Sequence record: PP129558
Length of the DNA stretch: 64,000 bases
Origin: Escherichia phage vB_EcoM_01
Strand: one strand, 5' to 3'
A program made the translations under genes and the position numbers. Within the stretch, counting starts at the first letter, position 1. Each line of letters begins with the position of its first letter. The notes beneath the pieces were generated by a model. The model had not been told where the DNA came from, ran no database searches, and saw only the letters and a list, made by a program, of their open reading frames with translations. Shown piece by piece: positions 23,634 to 64,000 of this stretch.

Positions 23634-24306
23634 GTGCCAGTGCCTCCTCATAAGAAATTCGGATTTTCCCATTTTTAATATCTTCTAAAGACGCTTTATA
23701 TTCTTCCCAGTTAATGCCAATAGCAACTTCTTTCTCTTCTTTTGTCAGATTAGCAAAAGGCATAGGATTGTTTCCAAAAACATCGTCTGGGTGGATATAA
23801 GCCATGATACGAAGTGGACAAGGTATTGCCTGAATGCCCTGATTCAAACCAGCAGCTTTCAAACGGTGTACCCATTCAGCATCTTCAAAACCATAGCCGT
23901 GAGTGTAAGGGCGGAAATAACCCATCTTCTCAACAACGGCACGAGAATACATTGCAAATTGACACATTGCAAGTTCCCAGAGAATAACTTCTCCTTTACT
24001 CCCAACAACTTTATCTTTGAAATACTCCGGCATACCAAAGAAATCCCATCCTCCAGAGACAGCTTGATCTACAAAATATGTTTCCCATCCCTCCATGATT
24101 GGGTAGCAATCGTCGTCAAAAATAAACCAATAATCATAACCTTCTTCATAAAACTGGTGCATAAGTTCATTCCTGGCGTAAGCTACACCTTTACGATCTG
24201 GATCGTTGAATACTCGAAAATCTGCATGTGGATCTGTTACAAGGTAGTCTTTAAGTGGACGGACACCTACAGTGATAACACCCACTCCGATTTTAATATT
24301 TTCCAT
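23623..24306 (-). CDS. glycosyltransferase-like protein (GT-A fold, DxD)
   Basis: 227 aa; GVGVITVG near N terminus, FIFDDDCYP (DxD-like), GFEDAEW. Confidence 0.45.
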   Translation of the reverse strand: MENIKIGVGVITVGVRPLKDYLVTDPHADFRVFNDPDRKGVAYARNELMHQFYEEGYDYWFIFDDDCYPIMEGWETYFVDQAVSGGWDFFGMPEYFKDKVVGSKGEVILWELAMCQFAMYSRAVVEKMGYFRPYTHGYGFEDAEWVHRLKAAGLNQGIQAIPCPLRIMAYIHPDDVFGNNPMPFANLTKEEKEVAIGINWEEYKASLEDIKNGKIRISYEEALAHVK

Positions 24307-26200: not shown

Positions 26201-26803
26201 TTACGGACATTCATACCATTCTTTTTTACCACCAAAGGCCATCACCACATCACAAATATCCAGACCAGCTTTACCTACACCATATGCTTTCAGCTTCCAT
26301 TCCCCATCTTCACGAACCAAGGAAGCCACGTGGCAGATTGTGTTGCCAGCTACTTCAGGAGCCAGGAAGTCAAAATCCAGAATTTCCACATTGCGCTCGG
26401 AGTCGAAGATTTTAAGCATACCTTCAGAAGCATGACCAAAACGTTTCAGACCTGTATCATCATCAATGGTCAGAACAAAGGCAATCTCTTGTGCGTCAGG
26501 AGAGATTTTAGCCAGAGTAATATCAATCTGCTCCATGCTGCCAGTTCCATCACGAACATCGTCACCAGCGAAGGTAGAACGTTCAGGATCAAACTTGTTA
26601 GCATAGCAAACCAGATGACGTGCAGACAGCATTTCAGGATTGCCAGCGGCATTGTGACGACAAACCAGTGCACTTACATCCAGATCTAGTTTAGAATCAG
26701 ATTTCCAAGAGAATTCCAGGCGCAGTTCTTTCAGAGCCGGAGCAACTTTCTTCAGGGAAATTTTTTCGCTAGAGCCTTTTTTCAGGGAAATTTTATCAGT
26801 CAT
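26201..26803 (-). CDS. terD: TerD-domain protein
   Basis: 200 aa; N-terminal ISLKK repeats, LDLDVSALV, GDDVRDGTGSMEQIDITL, IAFVLTIDD, DGEWKLKAYGVG match conserved TerD blocks. Confidence 0.8.
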   Translation of the reverse strand: MTDKISLKKGSSEKISLKKVAPALKELRLEFSWKSDSKLDLDVSALVCRHNAAGNPEMLSARHLVCYANKFDPERSTFAGDDVRDGTGSMEQIDITLAKISPDAQEIAFVLTIDDDTGLKRFGHASEGMLKIFDSERNVEILDFDFLAPEVAGNTICHVASLVREDGEWKLKAYGVGKAGLDICDVVMAFGGKKEWYECP

Positions 26804-27317: not shown

Positions 27318-28108
27318 TTTTTAGCACCTACTTTAACAACCCACTCTCCGAACTCTTCAGATAAGAGTTTGTCATAAAGCTCTGAATCTGTCAAGTCTAA
27401 ATCTTTAATGCCAATAAAACCAACATTATCATAAGCATTTGCCAGTTCTTTCAGGAAGCCAAACTTCTCATTACCAACGCCAACCATGAACCAATAAATA
27501 GGTTTATTCTTATTCTCTTCGATAAGACGACGAACAGCACTAGGATCACCATTCTCACCATCAGTCTGGAAGAATACAACACCAGGGGTAACGTCAGCAC
27601 CTGGTTCAGATACAGCTACAACTTTTTCACGCTCTACAGACACTGTTTCAGTTTTACCAAGCAGACGATTAAAGAAGCCTTTCTTTGGAGCCTCCTCTTG
27701 TACCACTTGTTTAGTGGTAATATATTTAGTAACAGTGCCAAAATACTCATCGTAGATATCCGCCATTACAGGGGCGTAATTTGTTCCACCTCCGATACGA
27801 ACATTACGCATACATTTACCAACATAATCGTCGTAAACATCTGCTGTTGCTGGAGTAAGCTCTTGGGAACTCGTATTGAAGGCCCACATATCAATTTGTT
27901 GATTATCGTCGAACAGCATACCAAAAGGAAGCAGTTTACCTACAAAATCACTCACTACCCCACTAGAATATAGACCATGCATACTACCAGAAATATCTAG
28001 AGCACATGCTACACGAAGAACAATCTTACCTTCGTTCAGGTTCTTATTCTTTTTCAGAGAGAAAGCAAGGTTTTCTTGACGTTTTTTCAGGCTGATTTTC
28101 TCGGACAT
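27314..28108 (-). CDS. von Willebrand factor A domain protein (TerY/TerF-like)
   Basis: 264 aa; MIDAS-type motif VACALDISGSM; N terminus carries ISLKK/FSLKK segments like the TerD gene. Confidence 0.65.
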   Translation of the reverse strand: MSEKISLKKRQENLAFSLKKNKNLNEGKIVLRVACALDISGSMHGLYSSGVVSDFVGKLLPFGMLFDDNQQIDMWAFNTSSQELTPATADVYDDYVGKCMRNVRIGGGTNYAPVMADIYDEYFGTVTKYITTKQVVQEEAPKKGFFNRLLGKTETVSVEREKVVAVSEPGADVTPGVVFFQTDGENGDPSAVRRLIEENKNKPIYWFMVGVGNEKFGFLKELANAYDNVGFIGIKDLDLTDSELYDKLLSEEFGEWVVKVGAKK

Positions 28109-28109
28109 A

Positions 28110-28388
28110 TTATTTCTCCTTTTTAAGTGTAATATTGGTAACTTCTAAATCTACTTCCACCATATTTGTATCTGGTGGGATGCAATGAGTATAGCCTCGT
28201 TGTGCTAGTGATCCATTAATACAGATCGCACTGTTTGTGGAATTTTTAATGAACACCAAGTTACGGTAGGTATCCAACCCTGCGTCTTCATAGGCATCAT
28301 AATACATGAATGTGGCCCCTACGTCAAGATCTTCGAAAGCAATAGGTAAATCCTGACTTTTTTCTTCTTGAATATTGAATCTAAACAC
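28110..28388 (-). CDS. small protein, paralogue of 26819-27088
   Basis: Start proposed at GTG 28388 with GAGGAGG RBS (track ORF starts 28454). Confidence 0.45.
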   Translation of the reverse strand: MFRFNIQEEKSQDLPIAFEDLDVGATFMYYDAYEDAGLDTYRNLVFIKNSTNSAICINGSLAQRGYTHCIPPDTNMVEVDLEVTNITLKKEK

Positions 28389-28944
28389 GCATACCTCCTC
28401 TACCAATTTTGAAGCCCAAATCGTAAGCTTCCTTAGTGATCTTTTGTAACTCACTTATAGGAAGTGTTACAAGAGGATCATCTTCTTCAATTTCCATCTT
28501 GTCATCTTCTGTTTCAATGAGAGTATTATGCACTTTGTGATAAGGGTTGTCAACACGTTTAAACTTATTCTTTTCTGTGCTGAAAAAACAATCTGGATCT
28601 TCTTCACCATCACCCCAACCTTGGTTAGGATCTCCGTCAGATTGTTCTGTAGGGATTTCACCTGTAAAGTACTCTTCCAGCACCATAGCAATACCGTCTC
28701 TTGGATTTGAGGAATGCATTAAATCACAAACCTTACCCCAATCCGTAGCCCATTCGAACCGTTCACGAACGCCATTTTCACCCTCTTTTCCAGAGAAAAC
28801 ACAACCATAACTATCATAGTTGCCATACATCTCTTCAATAACAACACCGTCCTTCAAAAGAAAGAGGTAGCAAGGTGATCCGTCGAAAGAAGTAGAAAGG
28901 GCAGCTTTGCCCGATTCTTTGCACAAAAAGCTAAAACAACCCAT
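28381..28944 (-). CDS. hypothetical protein
   Basis: 187 aa ORF, acidic. Confidence 0.5.
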   Translation of the reverse strand: MGCFSFLCKESGKAALSTSFDGSPCYLFLLKDGVVIEEMYGNYDSYGCVFSGKEGENGVRERFEWATDWGKVCDLMHSSNPRDGIAMVLEEYFTGEIPTEQSDGDPNQGWGDGEEDPDCFFSTEKNKFKRVDNPYHKVHNTLIETEDDKMEIEEDDPLVTLPISELQKITKEAYDLGFKIGRGGMRV

Positions 28945-32834: not shown

Positions 32835-33809
32835 TTAAACAGTAGCTTCTTCTTTTTCAGGGAAGATAAAGCTTGCAATAACACCAAGAGCTAATGTGCC
32901 TAGAACAATCATCAGACTTACGTTAGGGGAAATATCATGCGGGAGGAATGACCACTTGGCATGAAGTGTTTCACCGAACGGGTGATACATAAGTTTAGCA
33001 CCAACAAACACCAGAACCACAGCAACAGCTTTCTCTAAGTGAACCAAATATTTCACAGCTACACTTAACACAAAGAAAAGTGCACGTAAACCAAGAACAG
33101 CCATCAGCATTGCAGAATAAACTAGCAGAGGTTCTTGTGTCACACCGATCACAGCCGGAACTGAATCAAAAGAGAAGACAATATCTGTAAGCTCAATAAC
33201 AAACACACAAAGAAGAGCAGGAGTTGCATATTTAATACCATTCTTAATGGTAATGAACTTTTCACCATCCAGTGCATTGTGCACAGGCAGAACTTTACCT
33301 ACTAAACGAACAGCCCAATGCTTAGAGTAATCAATATCCTCTTCTTCGTCACCACCTTTGATGATAGCCACGGCAGACCAAGCTACAATCAAACCGAACA
33401 ACACTTGGACCGACCAATGAAGGTTAAACAAAGCGGTCCCTGCTGCAACAAAAATACCTCGGAAGACAATGGCTCCTGCAATCCCCCAAAGTAAAATCTT
33501 ATGTTGGAGATGTGTGCTCTTAATTCCAAAGCTTGCAAAAATTGCCATGAACACCATCAGGTTATCTACAGAAAGACTCTTTTCCAACACATAGCCACTT
33601 AGGAAAAGCGCGGCAAACTCTTTACCATGTTCTACCCAAATGAATGCGTAATATCCTAAAGCTAAAGCAATCCAAAAAACAGACCAAAGCAAAGCAGATT
33701 TAATTCCAATTTCTTTATTCTCTTTATGACCAAAGAAATCGATACCAATAGACAATGCTAAAATACCAACTAAAACAACTACATCAATAATTGGGAAACC
33801 AAGTTGCAT
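32835..33809 (-). CDS. terC: TerC-family integral membrane protein
   Basis: 324 aa, multiple TM helices; hallmark SGYVLEKSLSVDNLMVF motif. Confidence 0.8.
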   Translation of the reverse strand: MQLGFPIIDVVVLVGILALSIGIDFFGHKENKEIGIKSALLWSVFWIALALGYYAFIWVEHGKEFAALFLSGYVLEKSLSVDNLMVFMAIFASFGIKSTHLQHKILLWGIAGAIVFRGIFVAAGTALFNLHWSVQVLFGLIVAWSAVAIIKGGDEEEDIDYSKHWAVRLVGKVLPVHNALDGEKFITIKNGIKYATPALLCVFVIELTDIVFSFDSVPAVIGVTQEPLLVYSAMLMAVLGLRALFFVLSVAVKYLVHLEKAVAVVLVFVGAKLMYHPFGETLHAKWSFLPHDISPNVSLMIVLGTLALGVIASFIFPEKEEATV

Positions 33810-33826
33810 TCTTTTCTCCTCTCTTT

Positions 33827-33885
33827 GCGGGGAACTATTCCCCGCTTCATGTGATATATCTTACTCTTTTTAAGAACTATGTCAA
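33827..33885 (-). promoter_or_regulatory. promoter plus 5' hairpin module upstream of terC (same architecture as the 55.7-59.9 kb array)
   Basis: minus strand: TTGACA-16 nt-TAAGAT-atatcacatga-GCGGGGAA tagt TTCCCCGC-RBS-ATG. Confidence 0.55.
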
Positions 33886-53698: not shown

Positions 53699-54237
53699 GA
53701 ATAACTGACGAATATGTATTCTTCTTTTCACATAAAGATGTGTTTAGTAATTGGTATATTGCACCCTTTACAGAAACTGAACCAGGTTACAATGAGACTT
53801 TCTGTTGTGTTGAGCAATATATGATGTGGCGTAAGGCTTTGCTGTTCAAGGATCATGCGATTGCAGCAGCTATCCTTGATCACTCGACTATACGTGACAA
53901 CGAGAGAAAACAAGCATACTACAAACGTATGGGTCGAGCGGTATCTGGTTTTAATAATGATATGTGGGAAGAGAACCGTGAGCGTATTGTTATGCGAGGT
54001 TTATGCTTGAAATATGTACAGAATCCAGATTTGTATGCAGACTTACACCTTTACCAATACAAAACGTTTGTTGAAGCAAGTCCTTACGATAAGGTTTACG
54101 GTATTGGAATGGGAATGTATGAACCAGGGGTGCTAAACCCTGCCACCTGGAAAGGGCAAAATCTTTTAGGTAAATATCATAACAAACTGATCGAAATACT
54201 TTTCCCAGACAAAATACCGCAAAGACGATATTTGTGA
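53695..54237 (+). CDS. NADAR-domain protein (YbiA-like)
   Basis: 180 aa; FFFSHKDVFSNW, EQYMMWRKA, RMGRAVSGF...MWEENRERIVMRGL..KYVQNPDL, EASPYDKVYGIG align block-for-block with E. coli YbiA. Confidence 0.75.
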   Translation: MRITDEYVFFFSHKDVFSNWYIAPFTETEPGYNETFCCVEQYMMWRKALLFKDHAIAAAILDHSTIRDNERKQAYYKRMGRAVSGFNNDMWEENRERIVMRGLCLKYVQNPDLYADLHLYQYKTFVEASPYDKVYGIGMGMYEPGVLNPATWKGQNLLGKYHNKLIEILFPDKIPQRRYL

Positions 54238-54478
54238 TATTTTAACTTTTTTCATTTTTAGAACAAAGGCGTCACTTTGTAGCACAGAAATAAGGCTCCT
54301 ACAGCACCGTAGAGAGCCTGTTATTTTGTCCTATACAAACCCTTGTCTTTTTCAGTTTGCATCACTAGGACTCGATCTGAGTGGGTTCCTGAAGGTCTGC
54401 CAATAAGATTAAAGGTTATCTCAAATTCCCATTACCTATTATCTCAAAAATCCCTCAAATTATTTAAACTTTTTAAGA

Positions 54479-54666
54479 ATTTACAAAAGTGAAAGTTGAA
54501 AACCAAAATTTAAAGTTTAGGAAAATTATCTTAAAATGTCAGATACAAAACAAAACTCAAAAGTCAAGGAAAATTTTAAAAATTTTGCGCGCCCACAGTA
54601 TTTAAAGTTTTTTTGCTTTTACAAAAATGAAAGTACAAAAGCAAAATTTAAAGTTTACAAAAATTT
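54479..54666. repeat. pair of ~45 bp direct repeats (about 88 percent identical) plus recurring tttaaagttt
   Basis: copy 1 at 54479-54526, copy 2 at 54617-54666. Confidence 0.6.
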
Positions 54667-54705
54667 ATGCAGATGGGAATGAGAAGAGTTCTCATATGGA
54701 AATGC

Positions 54706-54784
54706 AAATGATAATGATTCGCATTTAGGTTTATAAATGAGATTGATTCTTATTTGATAAGGTAAATGATAATCATTCTCATTT
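54706..54784. promoter_or_regulatory. two Fur-box-like motifs
   Basis: aaaTGATAATGATTCGCATTt (54706-54726) and aaaTGATAATCATTCTCATTt (54764-54784); resemble Fur box GATAATGATAATCATTATC. Confidence 0.4.
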
Positions 54785-55010
54785 AGAGAATGACGCGCAG
54801 GGGCGGTGTTTGTCTCGCGCTCCCGTGTCCCCTCGCCATGTAATAAGAATAACAGATCCAGCCAGGAAAGCAAGCGATTATTTTATCTTTACATTTCTTT
54901 ACAAATATATAGCGCCCAGCCTACCGGCGATCAACCTTCCAACCAGCGCCCTGGTATGTTAGCCCCGCCTTTACGCCGTGGGGTGGCGCTTCCTCTCCTG
55001 TATGTAAAAC

Positions 55011-55039
55011 AGTATAAGCCCGATCCCTGGGCTTGTCAA
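55011..55039 (-). promoter_or_regulatory. near-consensus sigma70 promoter on minus strand within GC-rich island
   Basis: TTGACA (rc 55034-55039), 17 nt, TATACT (rc 55011-55016). Confidence 0.45.
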
Positions 55040-55041
55040 GA

Positions 55042-55308
55042 TTATTTTTTGTTTTCTTGCCAGGATAGGACACCTAACCAAAAATGCATATCGCCCCGCG
55101 CCCCTGGCGGGATCTTGCTTTCCCCGCCGCCACTGCAAGCCCATAAATAACCATCAGCGAACGGATCAAAATGTTCTATCTCTTCCACTTTATGATCGCC
55201 CAGGTTGAGAACTGTTTCAACCTTTAAGCCCGTTGCGCTTGCTACCTGGTGCACCGTGCCGCCTTGCCAGCCCAATGAGTGCATAAGGTGTAATGTAGTA
55301 TTTGTCAT
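55042..55308 (-). CDS. hypothetical protein (GC-rich island)
   Basis: 88 aa ORF with non-repetitive composition; weak RBS. Confidence 0.3.
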   Translation of the reverse strand: MTNTTLHLMHSLGWQGGTVHQVASATGLKVETVLNLGDHKVEEIEHFDPFADGYLWACSGGGESKIPPGARGDMHFWLGVLSWQENKK

Positions 55309-55495
55309 GGTATCGCCCTTTCTTTGTTGTGCGCCCAGGTTGGCGCGGTAGAAAGATGATAGCCGTTTCCTTCATATATAGCAAGCAAAAAGAAAATAAA
55401 AAAGATTGAAAAAGTGGTTGACGTTCCTCACCTGGTAGCNNNNTANTCNACCGTCCACCAACAAAAAACATCATTCATCACCTGGAGTTAAAATC

Positions 55496-55693
55496 ATGGC
55501 AACATTGCACATTGTGGCGAAAGCAGGACAAATCAGCGTCGTGGTAAACGGTTTTACTGAGTTCAGTCATCCCCAGGATGATCATGAAACGGTTTTATCT
55601 TTCATTGATTCCCTGTTAGAAATGGGAGTCATTACAGAAGACCAGCACGCTACAAAATGCAAGCGCGTTAATCAAATTGCAGGAATAGAATAA
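55496..55693 (+). CDS. hypothetical small protein
   Basis: 65 aa; GGAG RBS. Confidence 0.5.
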   Translation: MATLHIVAKAGQISVVVNGFTEFSHPQDDHETVLSFIDSLLEMGVITEDQHATKCKRVNQIAGIE

Positions 55694-55699
55694 AAAGTA

Positions 55700-55758
55700 T
55701 TGACAACAAACAACAACCTGATAAGATGTATCACATAGGGCGGGAAGTGGTTTCCCGC
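55700..55758 (+). promoter_or_regulatory. promoter plus 5' hairpin module
   Basis: TTGACA-16-TG-a-TAAGAT-gtatcacatag-GGCGGGAA gtggt TTCCCGC. Confidence 0.6.
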
Positions 55759-55783
55759 TCGTAACAGAAGAGAGATTATCATC

Positions 55784-56056
55784 ATGGCATCATATAGCGC
55801 AACAATGATCGTAGCTGGCACCACTGGTAAACCTATGTGCGGTGGCGGATCTTTCGCTAATATCAATATTGACGGGCGTTTATCCCTGGACGCAGCGATC
55901 ACCGTGGCGCGGGAAACATTTAAGAAAGAATGTAAATTCAATAAACAAGATTATCTCGGTTTCGCTATTGAAAAAACCGCGCGCTTTGTTGATTATAAAA
56001 GCCCGAAAATGGTTGATACTACACTAAAAGCGCAAGATGTAGCGTTTTTGCTTTAA
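55784..56056 (+). CDS. hypothetical small protein (array gene)
   Basis: 90 aa; AGAGAGATTATC RBS; preceded by module. Confidence 0.6.
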   Translation: MASYSATMIVAGTTGKPMCGGGSFANINIDGRLSLDAAITVARETFKKECKFNKQDYLGFAIEKTARFVDYKSPKMVDTTLKAQDVAFLL

Positions 56057-56059
56057 GGC

Positions 56060-56114
56060 TTGACATTAACGAATAATTTGTTTATATGTTACATAAAGCG
56101 GGAATAGTTCCCGC
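56060..56114 (+). promoter_or_regulatory. promoter plus 5' hairpin module
   Basis: TTGACA-17-TATATG...GCGGGAA tag TTCCCGC. Confidence 0.55.
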
Positions 56115-56132
56115 TATTTGTAAGGTGGTAGA

Positions 56133-56390
56133 ATGTTTTACATCAAATTAAAAGGTCACGTGATCGCGTTCAAAGATAACGCTTTTTACAGATTAGCAAA
56201 ATATGCGTTAATACATCCCCACTATGTTTATATAAGGGGGCGTGATGAAATAAATATCTTTGATCAAACAACATGCGAGAACATCGAGATCCGCAAGGTT
56301 GGCGTACGTGATTATCGTACATCTTTCTACCCTTGCAAGGATTCAGCAAGTCTTTTTAAAGTATGCCGATTGTTGAAAAAAGGTGGTTAA
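56133..56390 (+). CDS. hypothetical small protein (array gene)
   Basis: 85 aa; AAGGTGG RBS. Confidence 0.55.
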   Translation: MFYIKLKGHVIAFKDNAFYRLAKYALIHPHYVYIRGRDEINIFDQTTCENIEIRKVGVRDYRTSFYPCKDSASLFKVCRLLKKGG

Positions 56391-56949
56391 TATGGGCCGC
56401 GAATATGTGATCCAGTCTTGGGTAAAACATGAAGCAGATGATCCGCGCATCATTCCTGATTATCTTGTCGATGAATCCACGGGCTATAGCGGGGAGCAAA
56501 TAGGTAACAGATCAGCACGTAGTAACGGCAACGTAAAAGCGCGTTATGTGCGCCCTGGCTGGCTGGCAAATGGTAACGCTGATTTATCCAGTGCGGAAGA
56601 TGCGAGCGACGGCGCGAAAGATAATCCTTTGTACAAAATTGATCCGGCTTTTCGTGTCCTGGATGAATACCCCAGCAAGATAGCGGCGCTCGATCAAGCC
56701 CTGGAAAGTAAGCGCATCACCTGGACCGCTTACAACATGGCAAAAAACGTACTTGATGGTAAATTGATTCAAGCTGAAAGAAAATTAGCCAAAATTGCAG
56801 CCATAGCCCAGGAGGAAGACGAGGAGACAACGGAAGAGGAAGAGTACGAAGAGATCCCGCCGTTGTTGTGTGTTGATGCTTTTCCTGATTATCAGCCGAC
56901 AGAGGAAGAAAAAAGGATCGCGCTAGAAAACTTTGAAAATAGTCTTTGA
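56383..56949 (+). CDS. hypothetical protein with highly acidic C-terminal region
   Basis: 188 aa; EEDEETTEEEEYEE tract. Confidence 0.55.
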   Translation: MVNMGREYVIQSWVKHEADDPRIIPDYLVDESTGYSGEQIGNRSARSNGNVKARYVRPGWLANGNADLSSAEDASDGAKDNPLYKIDPAFRVLDEYPSKIAALDQALESKRITWTAYNMAKNVLDGKLIQAERKLAKIAAIAQEEDEETTEEEEYEEIPPLLCVDAFPDYQPTEEEKRIALENFENSL

Positions 56950-57003
56950 CATATCGCCGCCACTGGCATAATATTTACCACGTAGGGCGGCAATGGTGCC
57001 GCT
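56946..57003 (+). promoter_or_regulatory. promoter plus 5' hairpin module
   Basis: TTGACA (overlapping upstream stop)-17-TAATAT-ttaccacgtag-GGCGGCA atgg TGCCGCC. Confidence 0.55.
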
Positions 57004-57031
57004 CATAGTGAAATTATGCAAGAGGTTTACA

Positions 57032-57127
57032 ATGATTAATAAAGAAAATAGCTTGACGGTTGGAACGATTAACGCTATCATTTTCGCCGTTCCATTTTGG
57101 GTTGTAGTAGCGGCTATTATTTTCTAA
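57032..57127 (+). CDS. small hydrophobic peptide (31 aa)
   Basis: AAGAGG RBS 7 nt upstream; MINKENSLTVGTINAIIFAVPFWVVVAAIIF; not in track. Confidence 0.45.
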   Translation: MINKENSLTVGTINAIIFAVPFWVVVAAIIF

Positions 57128-57136
57128 AAAATATTC

Positions 57137-57196
57137 TTGACAACGTTTTTTAATCTGATAAGATGTATCACATAGGGCGGCGGAATACTTCCCCGC
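57137..57196 (+). promoter_or_regulatory. promoter plus 5' hairpin module
   Basis: TTGACA-16-TG-a-TAAGAT-gtatcacatag-GGCGGCGGAA tac TTCCCCGCC. Confidence 0.6.
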
Positions 57197-57218
57197 CAAA
57201 ACAAAAAAGGGTAACACA

Positions 57219-57581
57219 ATGAGCAAGCAAATCAATACTATCATGTTTAATCTGGTATCTTTCCGCGATGATATGAAAAATTTACCACGTGAAACGGTTG
57301 ATATTCATGTTTCAGCTTATCGCGCCCTTATTGATATGTTACCGCTAAAACGTGATCAACATGCCGCTAATATGATGCTTAATGCTATGCTTAAAAAGAT
57401 GATTCAAACGGATCTTACTCTGGCGTATGAGTATCAAGGGCGCTTATATGCGACTTACAACAAGGCGGTACCTGGTCTAGGAAGTACCGAAGAGTTGCAC
57501 GGCTTAAACCTGGATCAAAACACTTGGGATAGTATGCGCCGCGTTATGGTATGGGCCGAAAGCGGTAAAATTTACGAATAA
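57219..57581 (+). CDS. hypothetical protein (array gene)
   Basis: 120 aa; AAAAGGG RBS. Confidence 0.6.
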   Translation: MSKQINTIMFNLVSFRDDMKNLPRETVDIHVSAYRALIDMLPLKRDQHAANMMLNAMLKKMIQTDLTLAYEYQGRLYATYNKAVPGLGSTEELHGLNLDQNTWDSMRRVMVWAESGKIYE

Positions 57582-57587
57582 AAACGG

Positions 57588-57647
57588 TTGACACTGTTTA
57601 AAATTCTAGTATAGTTTACCACATAGGGCGGGAAGTGGTTTCCCGCC
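57588..57647 (+). promoter_or_regulatory. promoter plus 5' hairpin module
   Basis: TTGACA-16-TATAGT-ttaccacatag-GGCGGGAA gtggt TTCCCGCC. Confidence 0.6.
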
Positions 57648-57669
57648 AACAATGAAAAAGGTTAACATC

Positions 57670-58035
57670 ATGGCTANNANTNNNAANNNTNNTGNTTATG
57701 CTACCCTGGCTAACACTGCTAAAATTGAACTATCCAGCATTGAAGCGGTACATATTAGCGCCCGTCGCTGGTTTCAAAAGTCTTATGGTAATACTTATTT
57801 CTCTTTGATGGTTGACGTTGAGATCGGCGGTAAACTGATCGAAGTGGTTAACGTTCCGTTTCAATATGGCTATGGGGATCATTTTGATACCGTTGCCCTA
57901 GAAGAGTTTAGCAAGGTTATCAACCTGGAAGGTAAAGAATTTTCAAATTATGCCTACCTTTCCCGTTTTTGCCGTGATAATGGGATCGCTGTATACAGTC
58001 ATGCAAGCGATGTTAAACGTAAAAAAGATTTATAA
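57670..58035 (+). CDS. hypothetical protein (array gene); contains ambiguous bases
   Basis: Start placed at ATG 57670 with AAAAAGG RBS (track begins 57652 inside hairpin); n bases at 57677-57694. Confidence 0.5.
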   Translation: MAXXXXXXXYATLANTAKIELSSIEAVHISARRWFQKSYGNTYFSLMVDVEIGGKLIEVVNVPFQYGYGDHFDTVALEEFSKVINLEGKEFSNYAYLSRFCRDNGIAVYSHASDVKRKKDL

Positions 58036-58041
58036 AAAGCA

Positions 58042-58100
58042 TTGACAGCACGAATAAAAAGAGTAAACTGTATTACATAGAGAGCGGGAATAGTTCTCGC
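58042..58100 (+). promoter_or_regulatory. promoter plus 5' hairpin module
   Basis: TTGACA-16-TAAACT-gtattacatagag-GCGGGAA tag TTCTCGC (G-U wobble). Confidence 0.55.
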
Positions 58101-58124
58101 CTCACTGAAAAAGAGAGAAAAATC

Positions 58125-58364
58125 ATGGCTAAATCTAAAATGTACAACGGTCACAAAAACAAAACTCATTGGAATGTAAGCCTGTGGATTAATAACGATG
58201 AGGGATTGTATCGGTTTGCATTGGGATTGATCAATGAGTGCGGTAATAAAGATCAGGCGGCTGATTTAATGTGCTACCGTTTGAAACAGGATGGAATCAC
58301 TACAACGCCAGACGGCTTTAAGTATAGTAAAACTGCAATCCGCGCCGCTATGGTTGGAATGTAA
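58125..58364 (+). CDS. hypothetical small protein (array gene)
   Basis: 79 aa; AGAGAGAAAAATC RBS. Confidence 0.55.
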   Translation: MAKSKMYNGHKNKTHWNVSLWINNDEGLYRFALGLINECGNKDQAADLMCYRLKQDGITTTPDGFKYSKTAIRAAMVGM

Positions 58365-58373
58365 TAAAAACAG

Positions 58374-58432
58374 TTGACAACGTTTAAAATTAGTGTAAGA
58401 TGTATCACATAGGGCGGGAAGTGGTTTCCCGC
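58374..58432 (+). promoter_or_regulatory. promoter plus 5' hairpin module
   Basis: TTGACA-16-TAAGAT-gtatcacatag-GGCGGGAA gtggt TTCCCGCC. Confidence 0.6.
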
Positions 58433-58455
58433 CAACAACAGAGAGATTAAAGATT

Positions 58456-58683
58456 ATGGCTATCAATATTGTTCGTGTATCCGGCACCGTTGGCAGTTCC
58501 CAGGTTGTAGCAGTTGTAACAAACAAAAAGATTAATGATGTATGTGAGATCTTGAATAAGTGGGCTATTGCTAATTTTGGGGAATATGCAAGCGTTGAGT
58601 ACATCGAATCCTACCAGGTGCCGACCATCAGCCTAACCGATCTCAACGTTGATCGCCTGTTATGCCTGGATGAATTAATCTGA
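58456..58683 (+). CDS. hypothetical small protein (array gene)
   Basis: 75 aa; AGAGAGATTAAAG RBS. Confidence 0.55.
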   Translation: MAINIVRVSGTVGSSQVVAVVTNKKINDVCEILNKWAIANFGEYASVEYIESYQVPTISLTDLNVDRLLCLDELI

Positions 58684-58692
58684 AAAAGATTG

Positions 58693-58748
58693 TTGACACG
58701 GGAAAGAAAAAGAGTAAACTGTATTACGTAGGGCGGCAATAGTGCCGC
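58693..58748 (+). promoter_or_regulatory. promoter plus 5' hairpin module
   Basis: TTGACA-16-TAAACT-gtattacgtag-GGCGGCA atag TGCCGC. Confidence 0.55.
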
Positions 58749-58773
58749 TCACAACAGAAGAGAGATTATCACG

Positions 58774-58910
58774 ATGGCTAATATCCGTACACTGTTAAAA
58801 AATGCAAGTCAAGTTTTATTTTCAGATGACGAGTATTTCAACAAAGACATTACAGGCGTGAAAAATTTAAAANGNCNTNNANNANTNTAACGGCGACGAT
58901 GAAGAGTAAT
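58774..58910 (+). CDS. hypothetical small protein (array gene), ambiguous bases near 3' end
   Basis: AGAGAGATTATC RBS; ORF about 45 aa; n bases 58874-58890 make the end uncertain. Confidence 0.35.
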
Positions 58911-58975
58911 TAATAAGGCGGGGAATACTTCCCGCCACGCAGTGAATTTTCCGTTTGGGAAGTAAAAAATAAATC

Positions 58976-59037
58976 TTGACGATAATTTGTTATCTGATAG
59001 AATGTATTTCGTAGGGCGGGGCAATAAGGCAACGCCC
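58976..59037 (+). promoter_or_regulatory. promoter plus 5' hairpin module (variant)
   Basis: TTGACG-16-TG-a-TAGAAT-gtatttcgtag-GGCG...CGCCC. Confidence 0.5.
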
Positions 59038-59055
59038 ATTAATGAGGGTAGAATC

Positions 59056-59163
59056 ATGTTAGAGAAAATTTTCACGGTTGTAATAGTGGGCCTGGCGTTA
59101 TTGGTTGGAGTGGTTGCAACTATGGCTAACATGATCCTATCTTCCCACGGTATCGGCTAAAAG
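59056..59163 (+). CDS. small hydrophobic peptide (35 aa)
   Basis: GAGGGTAGAATC RBS; MLEKIFTVVIVGLALLVGVVATMANMILSSHGIG; not in track. Confidence 0.45.
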
Positions 59164-59248
59164 AGAGACACAACATGAAAACAGAAATCATTATTGAAAT
59201 CATCAACGGCTATAAAGAAGCCTTTATTTTTGCTGAATCACACATCTG

Positions 59249-59303
59249 NNNNNNNNNNNNNNNNNNNNNNNNNNNNNNNNNNNNNNNNNNNNNNNNNNNN
59301 NNN
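59249..59303. other. scaffold gap (N-run) with duplicated flanks
   Basis: 59094-59240 is repeated at 59304-59450. Confidence 0.9.
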
Positions 59304-59384
59304 GGCGTTATTGGTTGGAGTGGTTGCAACTATGGCTAACATGATCCTATCTTCCCACGGTATCGGCTAAAAGAGAGACACAAC

Positions 59385-59771
59385 ATGAAAACAGAAATCA
59401 TTATTGAAATCATCAACGGCTATAAAGAAGCCTTTATTTTTGCTGAATCAGCAAGGGATCATGAAGGTAATTTTATCGATAACTTAGACGATTATGATTT
59501 TTCTCCTAGCGCGGACGAACGGATCGCCCAGGATGTAACAGCCTTTATTAATGCTAATCTTGCCGCTATCTCTGAGGCAATGAGCGACGGCGCAACAGCC
59601 AACCAGATCGGGAATGATTTACATTTTACCCGTAACGGTCACGGCGTAGGATTTTGGGATCGCCCTGAAATATACACCACTAACACGGCGAACCGCCTAA
59701 CAAATGCAGCTAAGTTTATGCCGAACGTGTCGGCTTACATTGGTGAAGATAATTTGATTTATATTGAATAA
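59385..59771 (+). CDS. hypothetical protein (array gene)
   Basis: 128 aa; AAGAGAGACACAAC RBS; truncated duplicate of 5' end at 59175-59240. Confidence 0.55.
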   Translation: MKTEIIIEIINGYKEAFIFAESARDHEGNFIDNLDDYDFSPSADERIAQDVTAFINANLAAISEAMSDGATANQIGNDLHFTRNGHGVGFWDRPEIYTTNTANRLTNAAKFMPNVSAYIGEDNLIYIE

Positions 59772-59777
59772 AAAGTA

Positions 59778-59889
59778 TTGACACAGATCGCCAGTGTGCT
59801 AATATTTACCACGTAGGGCGGCAATGGNNNNNNNGANACNGATCGCCAGTGTGCTAATATTTACCACGTAGGGCGGCAATGGTGCCGCC
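59778..59889 (+). promoter_or_regulatory. promoter plus 5' hairpin module (duplicated by assembly artifact)
   Basis: TTGACA-16-TAATAT-ttaccacgtag-GGCGGCA atgg TGCCGCC; repeated after n block 59828-59840. Confidence 0.55.
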
Positions 59890-59907
59890 GATAATGAGGA
59901 AAGTAAA

Positions 59908-60207
59908 ATGGAAACTATCGCTATTGTTACCGTAGAAAAACTGGTTGTTGGTGATGTATTCGCGTTAATGGTGCCTAACAGCAGCAAGCTGGGCGCTTAT
60001 GAAGTAATGGATCATAAAAATGAATCATTTGGCGACGGTTGCACAATGGCGGTAAAATCTTTAAGGGATGGAATCATCCGCCAGGCTAACTGGCACAAAG
60101 GGAATCAAGTCGGTTTAATATCAGCTAATTTCTTGCCAGAAGAGCAAACATTAGATCAACTGTCAGGCGGTAAGACGTTAGCCGAACTACTGGAAACAGC
60201 GATCTAA
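59908..60207 (+). CDS. hypothetical protein (array gene)
   Basis: 99 aa; GAGGAAAG RBS. Confidence 0.55.
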   Translation: METIAIVTVEKLVVGDVFALMVPNSSKLGAYEVMDHKNESFGDGCTMAVKSLRDGIIRQANWHKGNQVGLISANFLPEEQTLDQLSGGKTLAELLETAI

Positions 60208-60212
60208 TCGAC

Positions 60213-60228
60213 AAGGGGCGGCAACGCC
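60213..60228 (+). other. intergenic RNA stem-loop with GNRA-type loop
   Basis: GGGGCG-GCAA-CGCCCC, no T tract; repeated at 60493-60508 by assembly duplication. Confidence 0.4.
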
Positions 60229-60298
60229 CCCATTAAACGCAATAGGAAGAGGATAGACACATGAAAAAGATGATCGCAGTAGTTGCCCTGGTTGTTGG

Positions 60299-60429
60299 NN
60301 NNNNNNNNNNNNNNNNNNNNNNNNNNNNNNNNNNNNNNNNNNNNNNNNNNNNNNNNNNNNNNNNNNNNNNNNNNNNNNNNNNNNNNNNNNNNNNNNNNNN
60401 NNNNNNNNNNNNNNNNNNNNNNNNNNNNN
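60299..60429. other. scaffold gap (N-run) with duplicated flanks
   Basis: about 150 bp before the gap is repeated after it (60430 onward). Confidence 0.9.
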
Positions 60430-60541
60430 CATTAGATCAACTGTCAGGCGGTAAGACGTTAGCCGAACTACTGGAAACAGCGATCTAATCGACAAGGGGC
60501 GGCAACGCCCCCATTAAACGCAATAGGAAGAGGATAGACAC

Positions 60542-60832
60542 ATGAAAAAGATGATCGCAGTAGTTGCCCTGGTTGTTGGTATTAACGCGCCTGTACTGGC
60601 TAATGAGTTGCCAGAATCCATCACGCTAACCGATATCAACGCAGTGAACCGGATCGGTGTTAATTATCGCCTATGCCTTGCCGCTAAAACTTTCCAGGAC
60701 GGCACGACAGAATACCACGGATTCGAGGGTATACGCTGCGGTGAGCTTGCACGCGACCTTAAGGAAGATCCAGACCTTGAGGCCATACCGATGACCGTAA
60801 ACGGTAAAGCTTACGTAAACCGCCAACAATGA
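60542..60832 (+). CDS. secreted small protein
   Basis: 96 aa; signal peptide MKKMIAVVALVVGINAPVLA; GGAAGAGGA RBS. Confidence 0.55.
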   Translation: MKKMIAVVALVVGINAPVLANELPESITLTDINAVNRIGVNYRLCLAAKTFQDGTTEYHGFEGIRCGELARDLKEDPDLEAIPMTVNGKAYVNRQQ

Positions 60833-60963
60833 GAAAGGTAATCATCACAATGGGGATCGTAGTAGCAACGCTGGCGCTTATTCCCTTCCTGGTTGAATAT
60901 GTGCTGATTAATGTTGTCCTGGTAGTCAGTGACATATTGGAAACGGTTGGCACCTGGTTTTAA
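60829..60963 (+). CDS. small membrane peptide (44 aa)
   Basis: ATGA stop/start overlap with upstream gene; MRKVIITMGIVVATLALIPFLVEYVLINVVLVVSDILETVGTWF; not in track. Confidence 0.45.
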   Translation: MRKVIITMGIVVATLALIPFLVEYVLINVVLVVSDILETVGTWF

Positions 60964-60972
60964 AAATAAATA

Positions 60973-61002
60973 AACAGGACTTGTTTTTGTCCTGTTTTTT
61001 GT
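60973..61002 (+). terminator. rho-independent terminator at end of array
   Basis: aacaggac-ttgttttt-gtcctgtt hairpin followed by TTTTTTGTT. Confidence 0.7.
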
Positions 61003-61139
61003 TATACTTATTGAACGGGCGGCACCTGGGAGCAGGCGAAGATAATCACCGGAAGATCCCGCTATATATCGATAGCTAATACCTATCAAACAACAAAACA
61101 TCAAAGAGATAAACTATCAAATCTTTACAATCCTACCTA

Positions 61140-61168
61140 TTGACCGATAAATCACAACAGTTTAATAT
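61140..61168 (+). promoter_or_regulatory. sigma70-like promoter (no hairpin)
   Basis: TTGACC-17-TAATAT upstream of 61217 start. Confidence 0.4.
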
Positions 61169-61216
61169 TGTTTTTAGAGGTTAGAATATTCCCCAAACGA
61201 AAACAGGAAAAAGAAA

Positions 61217-62456
61217 ATGAAAGAAGTTATGATCCTCAAAAAATCACCTATTTTACGTGGTGGCTTTATCGCTTACTCTGATGATCTGTTAATTGCAACA
61301 GTTGCAAAAATACTAAAATCAGAAGATGACAGTAAANNNNNNNNNNNNNNNNNNNNNNNNNNNNNNNNNNNNNNNNNNNNNNNNNNNNNNNNNNNNNNNN
61401 NNNNNNNNNNNNNNNNNNNNNNNNNNNNNNNNNNNNNNNNNNNNNNNNNNNNNNNNNNNNNNNNNNNNNNNNNNNNNNNNNNNNNNNNNNNNNNNNNNNN
61501 NNNNNNNNNNNNNNNNNNNNNNNNNNNNNNNNNNNNNNNNNNNNNNNNNNNNNNNNNNNNNNNNNNNNNNNNNNNNNNNNNNNNNNNNNNNNNNNNNNNN
61601 NNNNNNNNNNNNNNNNNNNNNNNNNNNNNNNNNNNNNNNNNNNNNNNNNNNNNNNNNNNNNNNNNNNNNNNNNNNNNNNNNNNNNNNNNNNNNNNNNNNN
61701 NNNNNNNNNNNNNNNNNNNNNNNNNNNNNNNNNNNNNNNNNNNNNNNNNNNNNNNNNNNNNNNNNNNNNNNNNNNNNNNNNNNNNNNNNNNNNNNNNNNN
61801 NNNNNNNNNNNNNNNNNNNNNNNNNNNNNNNNNNNNNNNNNNNNNNNNNNNNNNNNNNNNNNNNNNNNNNNNNNNNNNNNNNNNNNNNNNNNNNNNNNNN
61901 NNNNNNNNNNNNNNNNNNNNNNNNNNNNNNNNNNNNNNNNNNNNNNNNNNNNNNNNNNNNNNNNNNNNNNNNNNNNNNNNNNNNNNNNNNNNNNNNNNNN
62001 NNNNNNNNNNNNNNNNNNNNNNNNNNNNNNNNNNNNNNNNNNNNNNNNNNNNNNNNNNNNNNNNNNNNNNNNNNNNNNNNNNNNNNNNNNNNNNNNNNNN
62101 NNNNNNNNNNNNNNNNNNNNNNNNNNNNNNNNNNNNNNNNNNNNNNNNNNNNNNNNNNNNNNNNNNNNNNNNNNNNNNNNNNNNNNNNNNNNNNNNNNNN
62201 NNNNNNNNNNNNNNNNNNNNNNNNNNNNNNNNNNNNNNNNNNNNNNNNNNNNNNNNNNNNNNNNNNNNNNNNNNNNNNNNNNNGGAAAATTGAATATCGC
62301 GAGATGATCGACGATGAAACGGGGCAGGATTTTAGCGAGTACGTTTATATTCGTTCCGAGACATTAGCCGAACGTTTGATCGAGAAAATGAAAGCAAAAA
62401 ATAAAATTAATTTATCTCATTGGATTGATATAACAAACGATCCAGCTTATCAGTAA
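61217..62456 (+). CDS. coding region interrupted by large gap (one or more genes)
   Basis: N-terminal 40 aa with RBS before gap; C-terminal 57 aa after gap ending at 62456 followed by terminator; 61337-62283 is N. Confidence 0.35.
61337..62283. other. scaffold gap (N-run)
   Basis: 947 n. Confidence 0.95.
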
Positions 62457-62471
62457 ATAACATTTCATACC

Positions 62472-62499
62472 AGGGCGCACAAAGCGCCCTTTCTTTTTG
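62472..62499 (+). terminator. rho-independent terminator
   Basis: agggcgc-acaaa-gcgccct hairpin followed by TTCTTTTTG. Confidence 0.65.
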
Positions 62500-62559
62500 C
62501 CCGAACAATGTTGATAGCTTTCGCCTATGAAAAACCGACACAGAACAAAACTGAATAAA

Positions 62560-63000
62560 TCGCGGTATCGAGCTAATCAACCATTAAACGAATAACCATA
62601 CCTCCCAGGGCAACAGGCTGTTAGAGAGCCATTTATAGCGGTTAAAATCGATCAACAACCAACAACAAACCATCAAAAACACCCTTTTACCTCCTTTCTA
62701 GTGCAATGATAACCATTATCATCTACCCATGATTATCTATGCAATATAAGCGCATAACTATAATGTTGATAATAGTTCGCAACAACTAACTAACCAACAA
62801 CCTAAAACAACAAGCAAACTAATCATAATCAAAGGAATAATAGCAAGATGATTGATAACGACAAACAATAAAACCATGATGAATACTAAGCAAGATAACG
62901 ATAACACGACAAAACAACCAACTAACGAACAATAACAAACGAAACCATTAAAATAATAACTATTAGCAAAATAGTGCCTGAATGAAATCATTACAAAACG
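62560..63000. repeat. strand-asymmetric A+C-rich low-complexity non-coding tract
   Basis: Plus strand dominated by caacaa/aacaa/ataac units, depleted in G and T; no credible ORF. Confidence 0.6.
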
Positions 63001-63023
63001 AATCATTCACAGAGTCATCATTA

Positions 63024-63240
63024 GCACGCTATGCCGGACACATAGCGAGCTAATAATAAGCCAACTACACCCCAACAATCATAACCATCGGTGATGGTTA
63101 TTTCTTGTTACTGCGTAGCTTGCAATAATTGCAAGCGTAATGACGCTTACACTTATTGCGCTGGCTTATTATTAGCATTATATGTAATTACCAAGATCAT
63201 AACATTAGCGCAATAACAATAATCATTGTGGTAATTACAT
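63024..63240. repeat. dense cluster of palindromes and inverted repeats
   Basis: cgctatg/catagcg (63026-63047); 14 bp arms 63049-63062 and 63163-63176; ataaccatcGgtgatggttat (63081-63101); gcttgcaatAattgcaagc (63118-63136); aagcgtaatgacgctt (63133-63148); atgtaattacc/ggtaattacat (63182-63192, 63230-63240). Confidence 0.7.
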
Positions 63241-63448
63241 AAGGAAATAATTAGCAAGATGAATAATTGCACGTAGCAACATGAGCGAATAGCGACAGNN
63301 NNCATAGTGTNNAAACATACAGGAAAATAAAGGCTAATCTTTTGGGGCGAATACTATCGCGTAGCGATATGTTGAGCAAGTTCTCTTAAACGTAAATAAA
63401 ATCAGAAAATTCTTGATTTGTTTTGGTTTTTATGTTAATAAACGTTTA

Positions 63449-63647
63449 AATAATAATCATTCTCATATAAATAATAGTCGGCTTGTCATGAGCGGGATTA
63501 GTTGACAATGTTCCGTCATATGATGAAGTTGCCAAGCCATTGATAAATAAGTGTTTGTGTGATTTATAATCAGGTGGCCCACCTTGTCGCTATGTTGGCA
63601 TGAGCCTTGCATAAGTCATTGAATACGAATGATAATTATTCTCATTC
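63449..63647. promoter_or_regulatory. two further Fur-box-like motifs
   Basis: aATAATAATCATTCTCATa (63449-63469) and aATGATAATTATTCTCATT (63627-63647); same core as 54706-54784. Confidence 0.35.
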
Positions 63648-63714
63648 GCATGATATTTGGGAATTGTCGCTGCGTGGACCTGACGGCCCGAAAATTCGCG
63701 TTAAGCACTTCTTA

Positions 63715-64000
<286 letters not shown>

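Follow-up and report, generated by a model that had tools for sequence, protein, structure and literature searches.

Composite cassettes that unite an early promoter with a stem-loop are known from T4-like phages, where Arbiol et al. (2010) and Comeau et al. (2014) reported them under the name promoter-early stem-loop (PeSL). A PeSL consists of an AT-rich tract, a sigma70-like early promoter, a stem-loop, a Shine-Dalgarno sequence (SD) and an ATG; PeSLs are clustered by ORFans in hyperplastic regions, and it has been demonstrated that their stem-loop terminates transcription and that mini-circles arise by recombination of the cassettes (PMC2839356, PMC4122927). The stem-loop is located upstream of the promoter (PST, nt-1), between the -35 and -10 boxes, or over the -10 box (RB49, phi1). 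Here we describe cassettes of a similar composition in Escherichia phage vB_EcoM_01 (sequence record PP129558, of which a stretch of 64,000 nt, the window, was analyzed). A unit of about 90 nt, with a promoter, a GC-rich hairpin and a ribosome binding site, precedes almost every gene in an array of small accessory genes of this phAPEC8/rV5-group coliphage.

Like the PeSLs, these units combine an AT-rich tract, a sigma70-like promoter (-35, about 17 nt, -10), a GC stem-loop and, at the 3' end, an SD and start codon. They also form arrays before small ORFan genes in plastic regions, and indels between close relatives are located at the cassettes. Unlike the PeSLs, they belong to the Stephanstirmvirinae and Vequintavirinae and not to the T4-like phages, and their stem-loop is fixed 8-11 nt downstream of the -10 box, inside the predicted transcript; the RB49-type geometry was encountered in one cassette only, in the relative KKP 3954 (23770-23843). 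Moreover, terminator activity and mini-circles are known for PeSLs, whereas the present cassettes are known from sequence alone. The element is best filed as a PeSL-like composite regulatory cassette from another lineage of phages, with a distinct and conserved geometry of its own by which the hairpin falls in the predicted 5' leader of each transcript. The idea behind the PeSLs, that a regulatory cassette is at the same time a recombination site for the shuffling of accessory genes, is thereby extended beyond the T4-like phages, and the changed geometry alters what the hairpin can do. A preliminary description of the locus, made from the letters of the window, had overlooked this precedent, as well as the signature of cassette shuffling and the hairpins in gaps that lack a promoter. 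The finding it reported is real and well delimited, and its interpretation is partly supported.

The hairpin also shares features with other described structures. As in the 5'-terminal stem-loop stabilizers of ompA and papA, a GC hairpin is found a few nt from the (predicted) 5' end, followed by an accessible ribosome site, and the structure matters while the sequence is free (about 45 stems, with 94% of cells paired). Unlike these, the predicted 2-4 unpaired nt put it at the edge of the protective range, and it is used serially on some 10-20 adjacent phage genes and not on one long-lived cellular mRNA. With intrinsic terminators it shares a GC-rich stem of 7-10 bp and a short loop, and annotation pipelines indeed call the module hairpins terminators, but there is no U-tract and the hairpin is located downstream of a promoter, 20 nt upstream of a start codon. 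Protective hairpins between cistrons are known as well (REP-type, malE-malF, papB-papA processing). Like those, the present hairpins are stable and intercistronic and could block 3' exonucleases after endonucleolytic cleavage; unlike those, they are usually tied to a promoter at a fixed spacing, and their sequences are unrelated to REP. Finally, lambda nut boxB and HK022 put are likewise promoter-proximal RNA hairpins in early phage transcripts, as the present ones putatively are, but a boxA or a two-hairpin put architecture is missing here, the loops vary and there is one hairpin per gene instead of one per operon.

No paper on these cassettes was found in the literature on Phapecoctavirus, Justusliebigvirus, Vequintavirus and PVP-SE1; the rV5 paper lists predicted promoters and terminators and nothing further on the cassettes. 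In the GenBank record of phAPEC8 the -35/-10 part is labelled 'host dependent promoter (MEME)' and a 20-mer of the hairpin 'putative promoter determined with PHIRE'. The record of ASO2A has pairs of a promoter and a 'rho-independent terminator (WebGeSTer)' before each gene, and that of Schickermooser has an ARNold terminator label on one hairpin, the ortholog of that of module 2. These annotations are mutually inconsistent and probably wrong.

Cassette architecture in the window

Ten cassettes (modules) are present on the plus strand at 55700-59907 and one on the minus strand at 33885 (Table 1). The preliminary description had claimed at least ten intergenic modules of one architecture, and all ten were recovered where it had placed them, with pattern, covariance-model and random-position tests that exclude chance. 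The degenerate pattern TTGAC..AYRTAGRG has 8 matches versus 0.17 expected, a number reached in none of 100 shuffles. A covariance model seeded with six modules from related phages returned, over the 64-kb window, exactly the ten modules and the minus-strand copy (33820-33863) and nothing more, and a comparable GC hairpin at the same offset is found at 2.6% of random positions.

In each module the stop codon of the upstream gene lies in an A-rich tract (ATAAAAA(G) before most -35 boxes), followed by the -35 box, 16-17 nt, the -10 box, 9-11 nt, the hairpin, an A-rich and T-poor spacer, a purine-rich SD and an ATG. The spacer length given earlier applies to all ten modules, and the -35 sequence, TTGACA, to nine of them, the ninth module having TTGACG. 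The -10 hexamers that had been listed (TAAGAT, TATAGT, TAATAT, TAAACT, TAGAAT) are all present and nine modules conform to TAnnnT, but the second module reads TTATAT and was missing from that list. A TG directly before the -10 box, described as frequent, is found in four of the ten. The promoters match 9-11 of the 12 consensus positions; this near-consensus character, including the -35 box, the spacer and the A-rich upstream tract, supports the proposed sigma70 type. The conserved t(a/t)tcacatag segment between the -10 box and the stem was likewise found, usually as (G/T)TAyCACRTAG. The hairpins are GC-rich, with 7-10 bp and a loop of 3-5 nt. The hairpin variants quoted in the preliminary description are correct; a GC-rich hairpin of this kind was however claimed for each module, whereas the ninth has a different stem of 5 bp and the tenth is split by a duplication. 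A G-U wobble had been noted in a single copy, which is indeed found at 58084-58100, but three more hairpins (55738, 56985, 58731) have a G.U near the stem base (GGGCGG...CCGCTC). The likely start codon follows 17-28 nt past the end of the stem and is preceded by AGAGAG, AAGG or GAGG.

The products of the ten open reading frames (ORFs) tested all belong to PHROGs of unknown function, and one of them matches Pfam DUF7249. The minus-strand cassette is far from the array and precedes the ORF of a 324-aa membrane protein (32835-33809, TerC-like by eye only), so that the element is not confined to tiny ORFan genes. By analogy with the early regions of T4 and T5, early timing and the 'host-takeover' role proposed before are plausible.

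Pairing of the hairpin and its predicted place in the leader

Because the window is a draft assembly, the modules were checked against finished genomes. The homologous early regions of Schickermooser, phAPEC8, KKP 3954 and ASO2A (Phapecoctavirus) and KMB37 (Justusliebigvirus) were compared, together with regions of Citrobacter phage Tr1 (unclassified Stephanstirmvirinae) and of FV3 (Vequintavirus) and PVP-SE1 (Seunavirus), both of the Vequintavirinae. The same architecture was found in all of these phages and hence in two subfamilies and five genera. In PVP-SE1 the modules are located at 119-126 kb of the genome; no convincing modules were found in positions 1-50000 of it. A simple finder collected 71 distinct modules, of which a few are probably false positives; they comprise about 45 different stems. 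Among these are GGGCGGCA/TGCCGCTC, GGCGGGAA/TTCCCGCC, AGGCGGTGG/CCACCGCCT and CGGGGGAA/TTCCCCCG, as well as GGCGCA/TGCGCC, GGGGCAA/TTGCCCC and GCCGGGG/CCCCGGC. In about 60 modules the stem begins 8-11 nt past the -10 box, even where the intervening sequence is unrelated.

The preliminary description had proposed an alignment of the modules with a covariation analysis. A whole-module alignment with MAFFT was set aside, since it put the 3' arms out of register owing to the differing lengths of stem and loop, and covariation was counted on covariance-model alignments of 62 and 74 distinct sequences. Standard pairs occupy 94.6% and 94.0% of the cells, respectively, and double-sided changes occur at 6 and 5 of the 9 pairs. 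The cells with such changes number 37 and 49, versus 10 and 19 in column shuffles, and none of 500 shuffles reached the observed counts. When the 3' partner was slid, pairing fell to 34-67%. One pair, for instance, is GC in 33 sequences, GU in 23 and AU in 11, and another is GC in 42 and CG in 26. Moreover, the interior positions that deviate from Watson-Crick pairing comprise 13 G.U and one A.C or C.A, and with symmetric definitions of the region the sense RNA is more stable than the antisense RNA in 51 of 63 hairpins (mean -1.36 kcal/mol). Covariation, the asymmetry between G.U and A.C, and sense-strand stability together argue that the hairpin acts as RNA of the sense strand, and selection for pairing on that strand is supported.

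The earlier argument for selection on RNA structure thus stands as to the pairing. Much of the compensatory change in the window, from which it was drawn, is however a switch among two or three hairpin alleles of paralogous cassettes and does not represent many independent events; the stronger evidence is the stem diversity of the other genera. In module 6 the orthologs of the relatives read TTCCCGC where the window has TTCTCGC, a one-sided change with the pair kept.

The sigma70 holoenzyme normally starts transcription about 7 nt (6-9) past the -10 box and prefers a purine after a pyrimidine. The conserved segment places a C-A/G step 7-8 nt past the -10 box; the variable R of CACRTAG is a purine throughout, in agreement with a +1 position, and a CA step is retained at this place even by the divergent modules. 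Counted from the start predicted in this way, the number of unpaired nt before the stem has its mode at 3 and is 2-4 in 51 of the 71 modules, from which we infer that the hairpin starts some 2-4 nt after the transcription start. The centroid fold of all ten window leaders is the hairpin alone, with the region of the SD and ATG mostly open. A start inside the hairpin, by which a promoter-embedded terminator would spare its own transcript, was rejected for the standard cassette, because the stem begins 8-11 nt past the -10 box and thus beyond the usual start range of sigma70. That geometry does fit one variant, at 23770-23843 of KKP 3954.

In all modules taken together the orientation of the stem is biased, with G on the 5' arm and C on the 3' arm (257 GC versus 79 CG pairs), which makes the first 16 or so transcribed nt purine-rich. 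Such a transcript start might be related to promoter escape instead of to the hairpin itself.

Cassette turnover and the role of the hairpin

Complete genomes of Phapecoctavirus (e.g. nieznany, Schickermooser, KKP 3954 and AV126), the phAPEC8-like E. coli myoviruses of about 150 kb in the subfamily Stephanstirmvirinae, match the flagged stretch of the window at 94-97% identity. The best near-identity relatives span 71-75% of this stretch in 3-6 pieces, and the gene content thus differs among close relatives. Schickermooser and KKP 3954 are 87-96% identical across the array. Six insertions, deletions or replacements (88-525 bp) distinguish them, and the junctions of each are located inside an intergenic cassette or within about 15 nt of one. 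At two of these, the alignment blocks have 36 and 65 bp of the shorter genome in common, as is characteristic of indels with direct cassette repeats on either side. Similar differences separate the window from Schickermooser at 57640-57676 and 58364-58366. Indel junctions at cassettes are the pattern that underlies the shuffling model of the PeSLs.

Gaps in the array without a promoter still bear a GC hairpin, for example at 60215-60230 and 58917-58936 of the window and at 26753-26798, 28247-28290 and 28528-28582 of KKP 3954. Its distance to the start codon that follows is about 20-30 nt, so that the spacing of about 20 nt found in the cassettes is kept here as well. The constant feature is a hairpin shortly upstream of the ribosome site at each cistron boundary; most gaps have, in addition, a promoter that precedes the hairpin at a fixed distance. 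Such boundary hairpins fit a general role in end protection, or as a boundary, on primary as well as on read-through or processed RNAs. Those at 60215-60230 of the window and at 28247-28290 and 28528-28582 of KKP 3954 have GNRA tetraloops (GCAA, GUAA) on GGGGCG/CGCCCC stems; the promoter-linked hairpins instead have AUGG, UAG or UGG loops.

We assign a probability of roughly one half to the reading that the hairpin serves mainly to protect RNA ends or as an insulator, the cassette having a second role in recombination. In an rV5/phAPEC8-type myovirus, each intergenic unit would then serve the early expression of one small accessory gene as a self-contained cassette. The host sigma70 RNA polymerase would initiate at the near-consensus promoter, whose A-rich upstream tract overlaps the stop codon of the preceding gene, and the transcript would run from the C-A/G step through 2-4 unpaired nt, a GC hairpin of 7-10 bp and an unstructured A-rich spacer of about 10 nt to the SD and ATG. 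On the cassette's own transcript this near-terminal stem-loop would limit the entry of RppH and RNase E. On read-through or processed transcripts it would shield the cistron boundary, as a 3' barrier for the upstream RNA and a cap-like 5' structure for the downstream one, and it would keep the ribosome site free of the upstream context. Repeated some 10-20 times head to tail, the cassettes would offer homology by which gene cassettes can be gained, lost or replaced, in line with the proposal made for PeSLs.

The geometry is compatible with such a stabilizer, yet at the edge of the protective range. The ompA stem-loop, in the work of Emory et al. of 1992, reportedly had to lie within 2-4 nt of the 5' end. 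It has been reported that 5'-terminal stem-loops block RppH and that base-paired 5' ends slow RNase E (PMC8833179, PMC3997798), while RppH and RNase E require at least 2 unpaired nt and favour at least 3 (PMC8833179).

Several considerations weigh against end protection as the main role. With 3-4 unpaired nt the 5' end would still be a usable substrate, so that protection could be weak. The hairpins in promoter-less gaps indicate a role that is not strictly tied to a primary 5' end, and the own transcript of the KKP 3954 cassette at 23770-23843 would lack the hairpin, which fits a role in read-through RNA better. The evidence for pairing has its own limits: paralogues and orthologues are linked by duplication and gene conversion, so that the events behind the covariation counts are not independent; the alignments were made to fit the structure of the model; and single-stranded plus-strand DNA would give an equal strand asymmetry. 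In addition, a literature search for this phage group returned no transcriptome, 5'-end mapping, half-life or timing data.

If a hairpin does stand at the 5' end of each early mRNA, the phages of this group would provide a natural, repeated and sequence-diverse set of 5' stabilizers or insulators, with about 45 stems behind strong sigma70 promoters. With such a set, the effects of 5' structure, RppH and RNase E on the lifetime of mRNA during infection could be tested, and compact, standardized expression cassettes could be drawn from it.

The hairpins at promoter-less boundaries also keep alive, as a rival, the idea of a PeSL-type attenuator, in which the hairpin mainly stops or damps transcription from the upstream cassette and is present in its own leader as a side effect of compact packing. 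The PeSL stem-loop of T4-like phages cut the expression of a downstream lacZ as strongly as rrnB T1 (PMC2839356), and several of the present hairpins are labelled terminators by WebGeSTer and ARNold in GenBank records. In KKP 3954, moreover, the stem arms TATAGCGCC / GGCGCTATA of the cassette at 23770-23843 enclose the -10 box TATAAT, so that RB49-type and downstream-hairpin cassettes coexist in one array. The tail of the stem does not agree with this idea. In 58 of the 71 modules the 8 nt after the stem contain 0-2 T, and 48% of the tail is A. A scan for a stem followed by a T-run called none of the ten module hairpins on the plus strand, whereas it did call the structure at 60972-60997. A canonical intrinsic terminator was rejected on account of the missing U-tract. 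The position is no more favourable: located downstream of the predicted start, a true terminator would kill the cassette's own transcript, and it would have no need of a fixed distance to the -10 box. In addition, upstream of the first promoter of the array there is no gene on the same strand to be attenuated, and the orthologous site still carries a hairpin, GGGCGGCAATGGTGCCGCTC, in phAPEC8 and Schickermooser. We therefore regard an attenuator as unlikely.

Somewhat more doubtful still is a binding site for a phage regulator, either the hairpin RNA or an inverted-repeat DNA operator over +1, that would switch off or otherwise time the early genes or recruit an antitermination factor in the manner of nut or put. 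The lower stem GGCGG/CCGCC and the loops (ATGG, TGG, TAG or ATAG in 43 of the 71 modules) are more conserved than pairing demands, operators do occur at such a position beside +1, and the element is common to the whole set of putative early genes, as in a regulon. On the other hand, neither the stem sequence nor its length (6-10 bp) nor the length of the loop (3-8 nt) is constant, and Tr1, FV3 and PVP-SE1 have stems of entirely different sequence, as would hardly be expected for a single dimeric DNA binder with sequence specificity. The tolerance of G.U and the asymmetry of the strands oppose a double-stranded DNA operator in particular; given also these ranges of loop and stem length and the rarity of A.C relative to G.U, an operator for a dimeric protein was judged unlikely. 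A boxA-like partner was not found, an Rfam search of 54000-63700 gave no relevant match at E <= 1, and no candidate binding protein was identified.

That the cassette is a purely selfish or recombinational repeat, spread and homogenized by recombination with a hairpin devoid of RNA function, appears highly improbable. It would account for the leader stretches outside the stem that are near-identical among paralogous cassettes (e.g. CACAACAGAAGAGAGATTATCA) and for the indel junctions in the cassettes, but pairing outlasts full replacement of the stem in distant genera, the offset from the -10 box is retained there and the one-sided changes are compatible with G.U. Hardly any weight can be given to the phage-specific promoter of the phAPEC8 annotation, in which the repeated 20-mer RTAGGGCGGCAATGGTGCCG, picked by PHIRE and recorded as 'putative promoter', would serve a phage-modified or phage-encoded polymerase, possibly as a DNA-hairpin promoter of the N4 kind: PHIRE detects repeated 20-mers only, the 20-mer is always 10 nt past a near-consensus sigma70 promoter and about 20 nt before the ATG, which leaves next to no space for another start and an SD, it is the pairing and not the sequence that is conserved across genera, and no evidence of a phage RNA polymerase was met, though none was sought.

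A more speculative reading, which we put forward with little confidence, is that the position-locked hairpin marks early transcripts as 'self' across the whole family of rV5-like phages. The mark could protect these transcripts from 5'-end-dependent decay at a time when the phage speeds up the turnover of host mRNA. The T4 protein Srd stimulates RNase E. A probable homologue of it is reported in the rV5 paper. Alternatively, the mark could be the handle of a phage RNA-binding protein that times the switch from early to middle expression. Either way, if true, some 20 genes with separate transcripts would share one short RNA structure that coordinates their fate.

Coordinates and state of the sequence

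The positions of the cassettes and of related elements are listed in Table 1. Module 10 is interrupted at 59828-59862, where the assembly has Ns and an artefactual duplication of 35 nt; the unsplit version of this module is present in KKP 3954 at 27872-27946. The hairpin-only element at 60215-60230 is artefactually duplicated at 60496-60511.

Table 1. Cassettes, hairpins and related elements in the window. Each plus-strand module begins at the first letter of its -35 box.
Feature	Position	Strand	Details
First array promoter	55416..55495	+	TTGACG, 17 nt, -10 partly Ns; drives ORF 55496-55693; no hairpin here
Module 1	55700..55783	+	promoter 55700-55727, TTGACA-16-TAAGAT, TG-extended; SD; ATG 55784
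Module 1 hairpin	55738-55760	+	GGGCGGGAAG/TTTCCCGCTC
Module 2	56060..56132	+	promoter 56060-56087, TTGACA-16-TTATAT; ATG 56133
Module 2 hairpin	56097-56115	+	AGCGGGAA-TAG-TTCCCGCT; sole module with a partial U-tract past the stem
Module 3	56946..57032	+	promoter 56946-56974, TTGACA-17-TAATAT; probable start ATG 57033
Module 3 hairpin	56985-57004	+	GGGCGGCA-ATGG-TGCCGCTC
Module 4	57137..57218	+	promoter 57137-57164; ATG 57219
Module 4 hairpin	57176-57197	+	GGCGGCGGAA-TAC-TTCCCCGCC, single bulged C
Module 5	57588..57669	+	promoter 57588-57615, TTGACA-16-TATAGT; probable start ATG 57670
Module 5 hairpin	57627-57647	+	GGCGGGAA-GTGGT-TTCCCGCC
Module 6	58042..58124	+	promoter 58042-58069, TTGACA-16-TAAACT; ATG 58125 (DUF7249 protein)
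Module 6 hairpin	58080-58103	+	core 58084-58100 GCGGGAA-TAG-TTCTCGC, internal G.U
Module 7	58374..58455	+	promoter 58374-58401; hairpin 58413-58433 GGCGGGAA-GTGGT-TTCCCGCC; ATG 58456
Module 8	58693..58773	+	promoter 58693-58720; hairpin 58731-58750 GGGCGGCA-ATAG-TGCCGCTC; ATG 58774
Module 9	58976..59055	+	promoter 58976-59003, TTGACG-16-TAGAAT; ATG 59056 (small membrane ORF)
Module 9 hairpin	59014-59037	+	atypical, 5-bp GGGCG/CGCCC stem around a 14-nt loop
Module 10	59778..59907	+	promoter 59778-59805; hairpin 59872-59889 GGCGGCA-ATGG-TGCCGCC; ATG 59908
Isolated module of the same family	33810..33885	-	TTGACA-16-TAAGAT; hairpin 33827-33845 GCGGGGAA-TAG-TTCCCCGC; ATG 33809
Hairpin-only element	58917..58936	+	GGCGGGG-AATACT-TCCCGCC; no promoter; after truncated ORF at N-containing junction
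Hairpin-only element	60215..60230	+	GGGGCG-GCAA-CGCCCC, GNRA loop; no promoter; flanked by ORFs 59908-60207 and 60261-/60542-
Bidirectional intrinsic terminator	60972..60997	.	9-bp stem and T-run; closes the array; contrasts with the module hairpins

The draft contains 2193 Ns, with short duplicated segments beside the N runs, and adapter and poly-G sequence at its end. The runs at 59249-59380, 59828-59862 and 60299-60511 are flanked by exact copies of the preceding 35-130 nt (59304-59384, for instance, repeats 59095-59175). These duplications are artefacts of scaffold joining and give rise to additional ORFs and a partial eleventh module that are not real. At 63769-64000 a Nextera transposase adapter (CTGTCTCTTATACACATCTGACGCTGCCGACGA...) precedes some 140 nt of poly-G; this is a sequencing artefact that was not removed from the assembly.

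At 58872-58962 some 3.7-4 kb of Schickermooser and KKP 3954, about 12 gene cassettes, are missing from the window, and the junction has interspersed Ns. This could be a real deletion or replacement, or a collapse of the assembly across repeated cassettes. The junction was not counted as evidence of recombination, because of the Ns and because the 75 nt that follow it are absent from the relatives that were fetched.

Public records labelled as phages of Campylobacter, Acinetobacter and Klebsiella are 94-98% identical to the coliphage region, and a record named 'Enterococcus phage heks' (39.7 kb) matches it at 87% over its first 1 kb or so. Probably, these represent mislabelled hosts, or contamination or chimeras in the public records.

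Finally, a stretch of about 1.2 kb downstream of the array (62460-63700) has no convincing ORF. It is A/C-rich, with 'caacaa' and 'aaccat' motifs, and contains scattered direct and inverted repeats of 16-24 nt. A 'non-coding' block is likewise shown in the rV5 paper, and the stretch could be an origin or terminus region.

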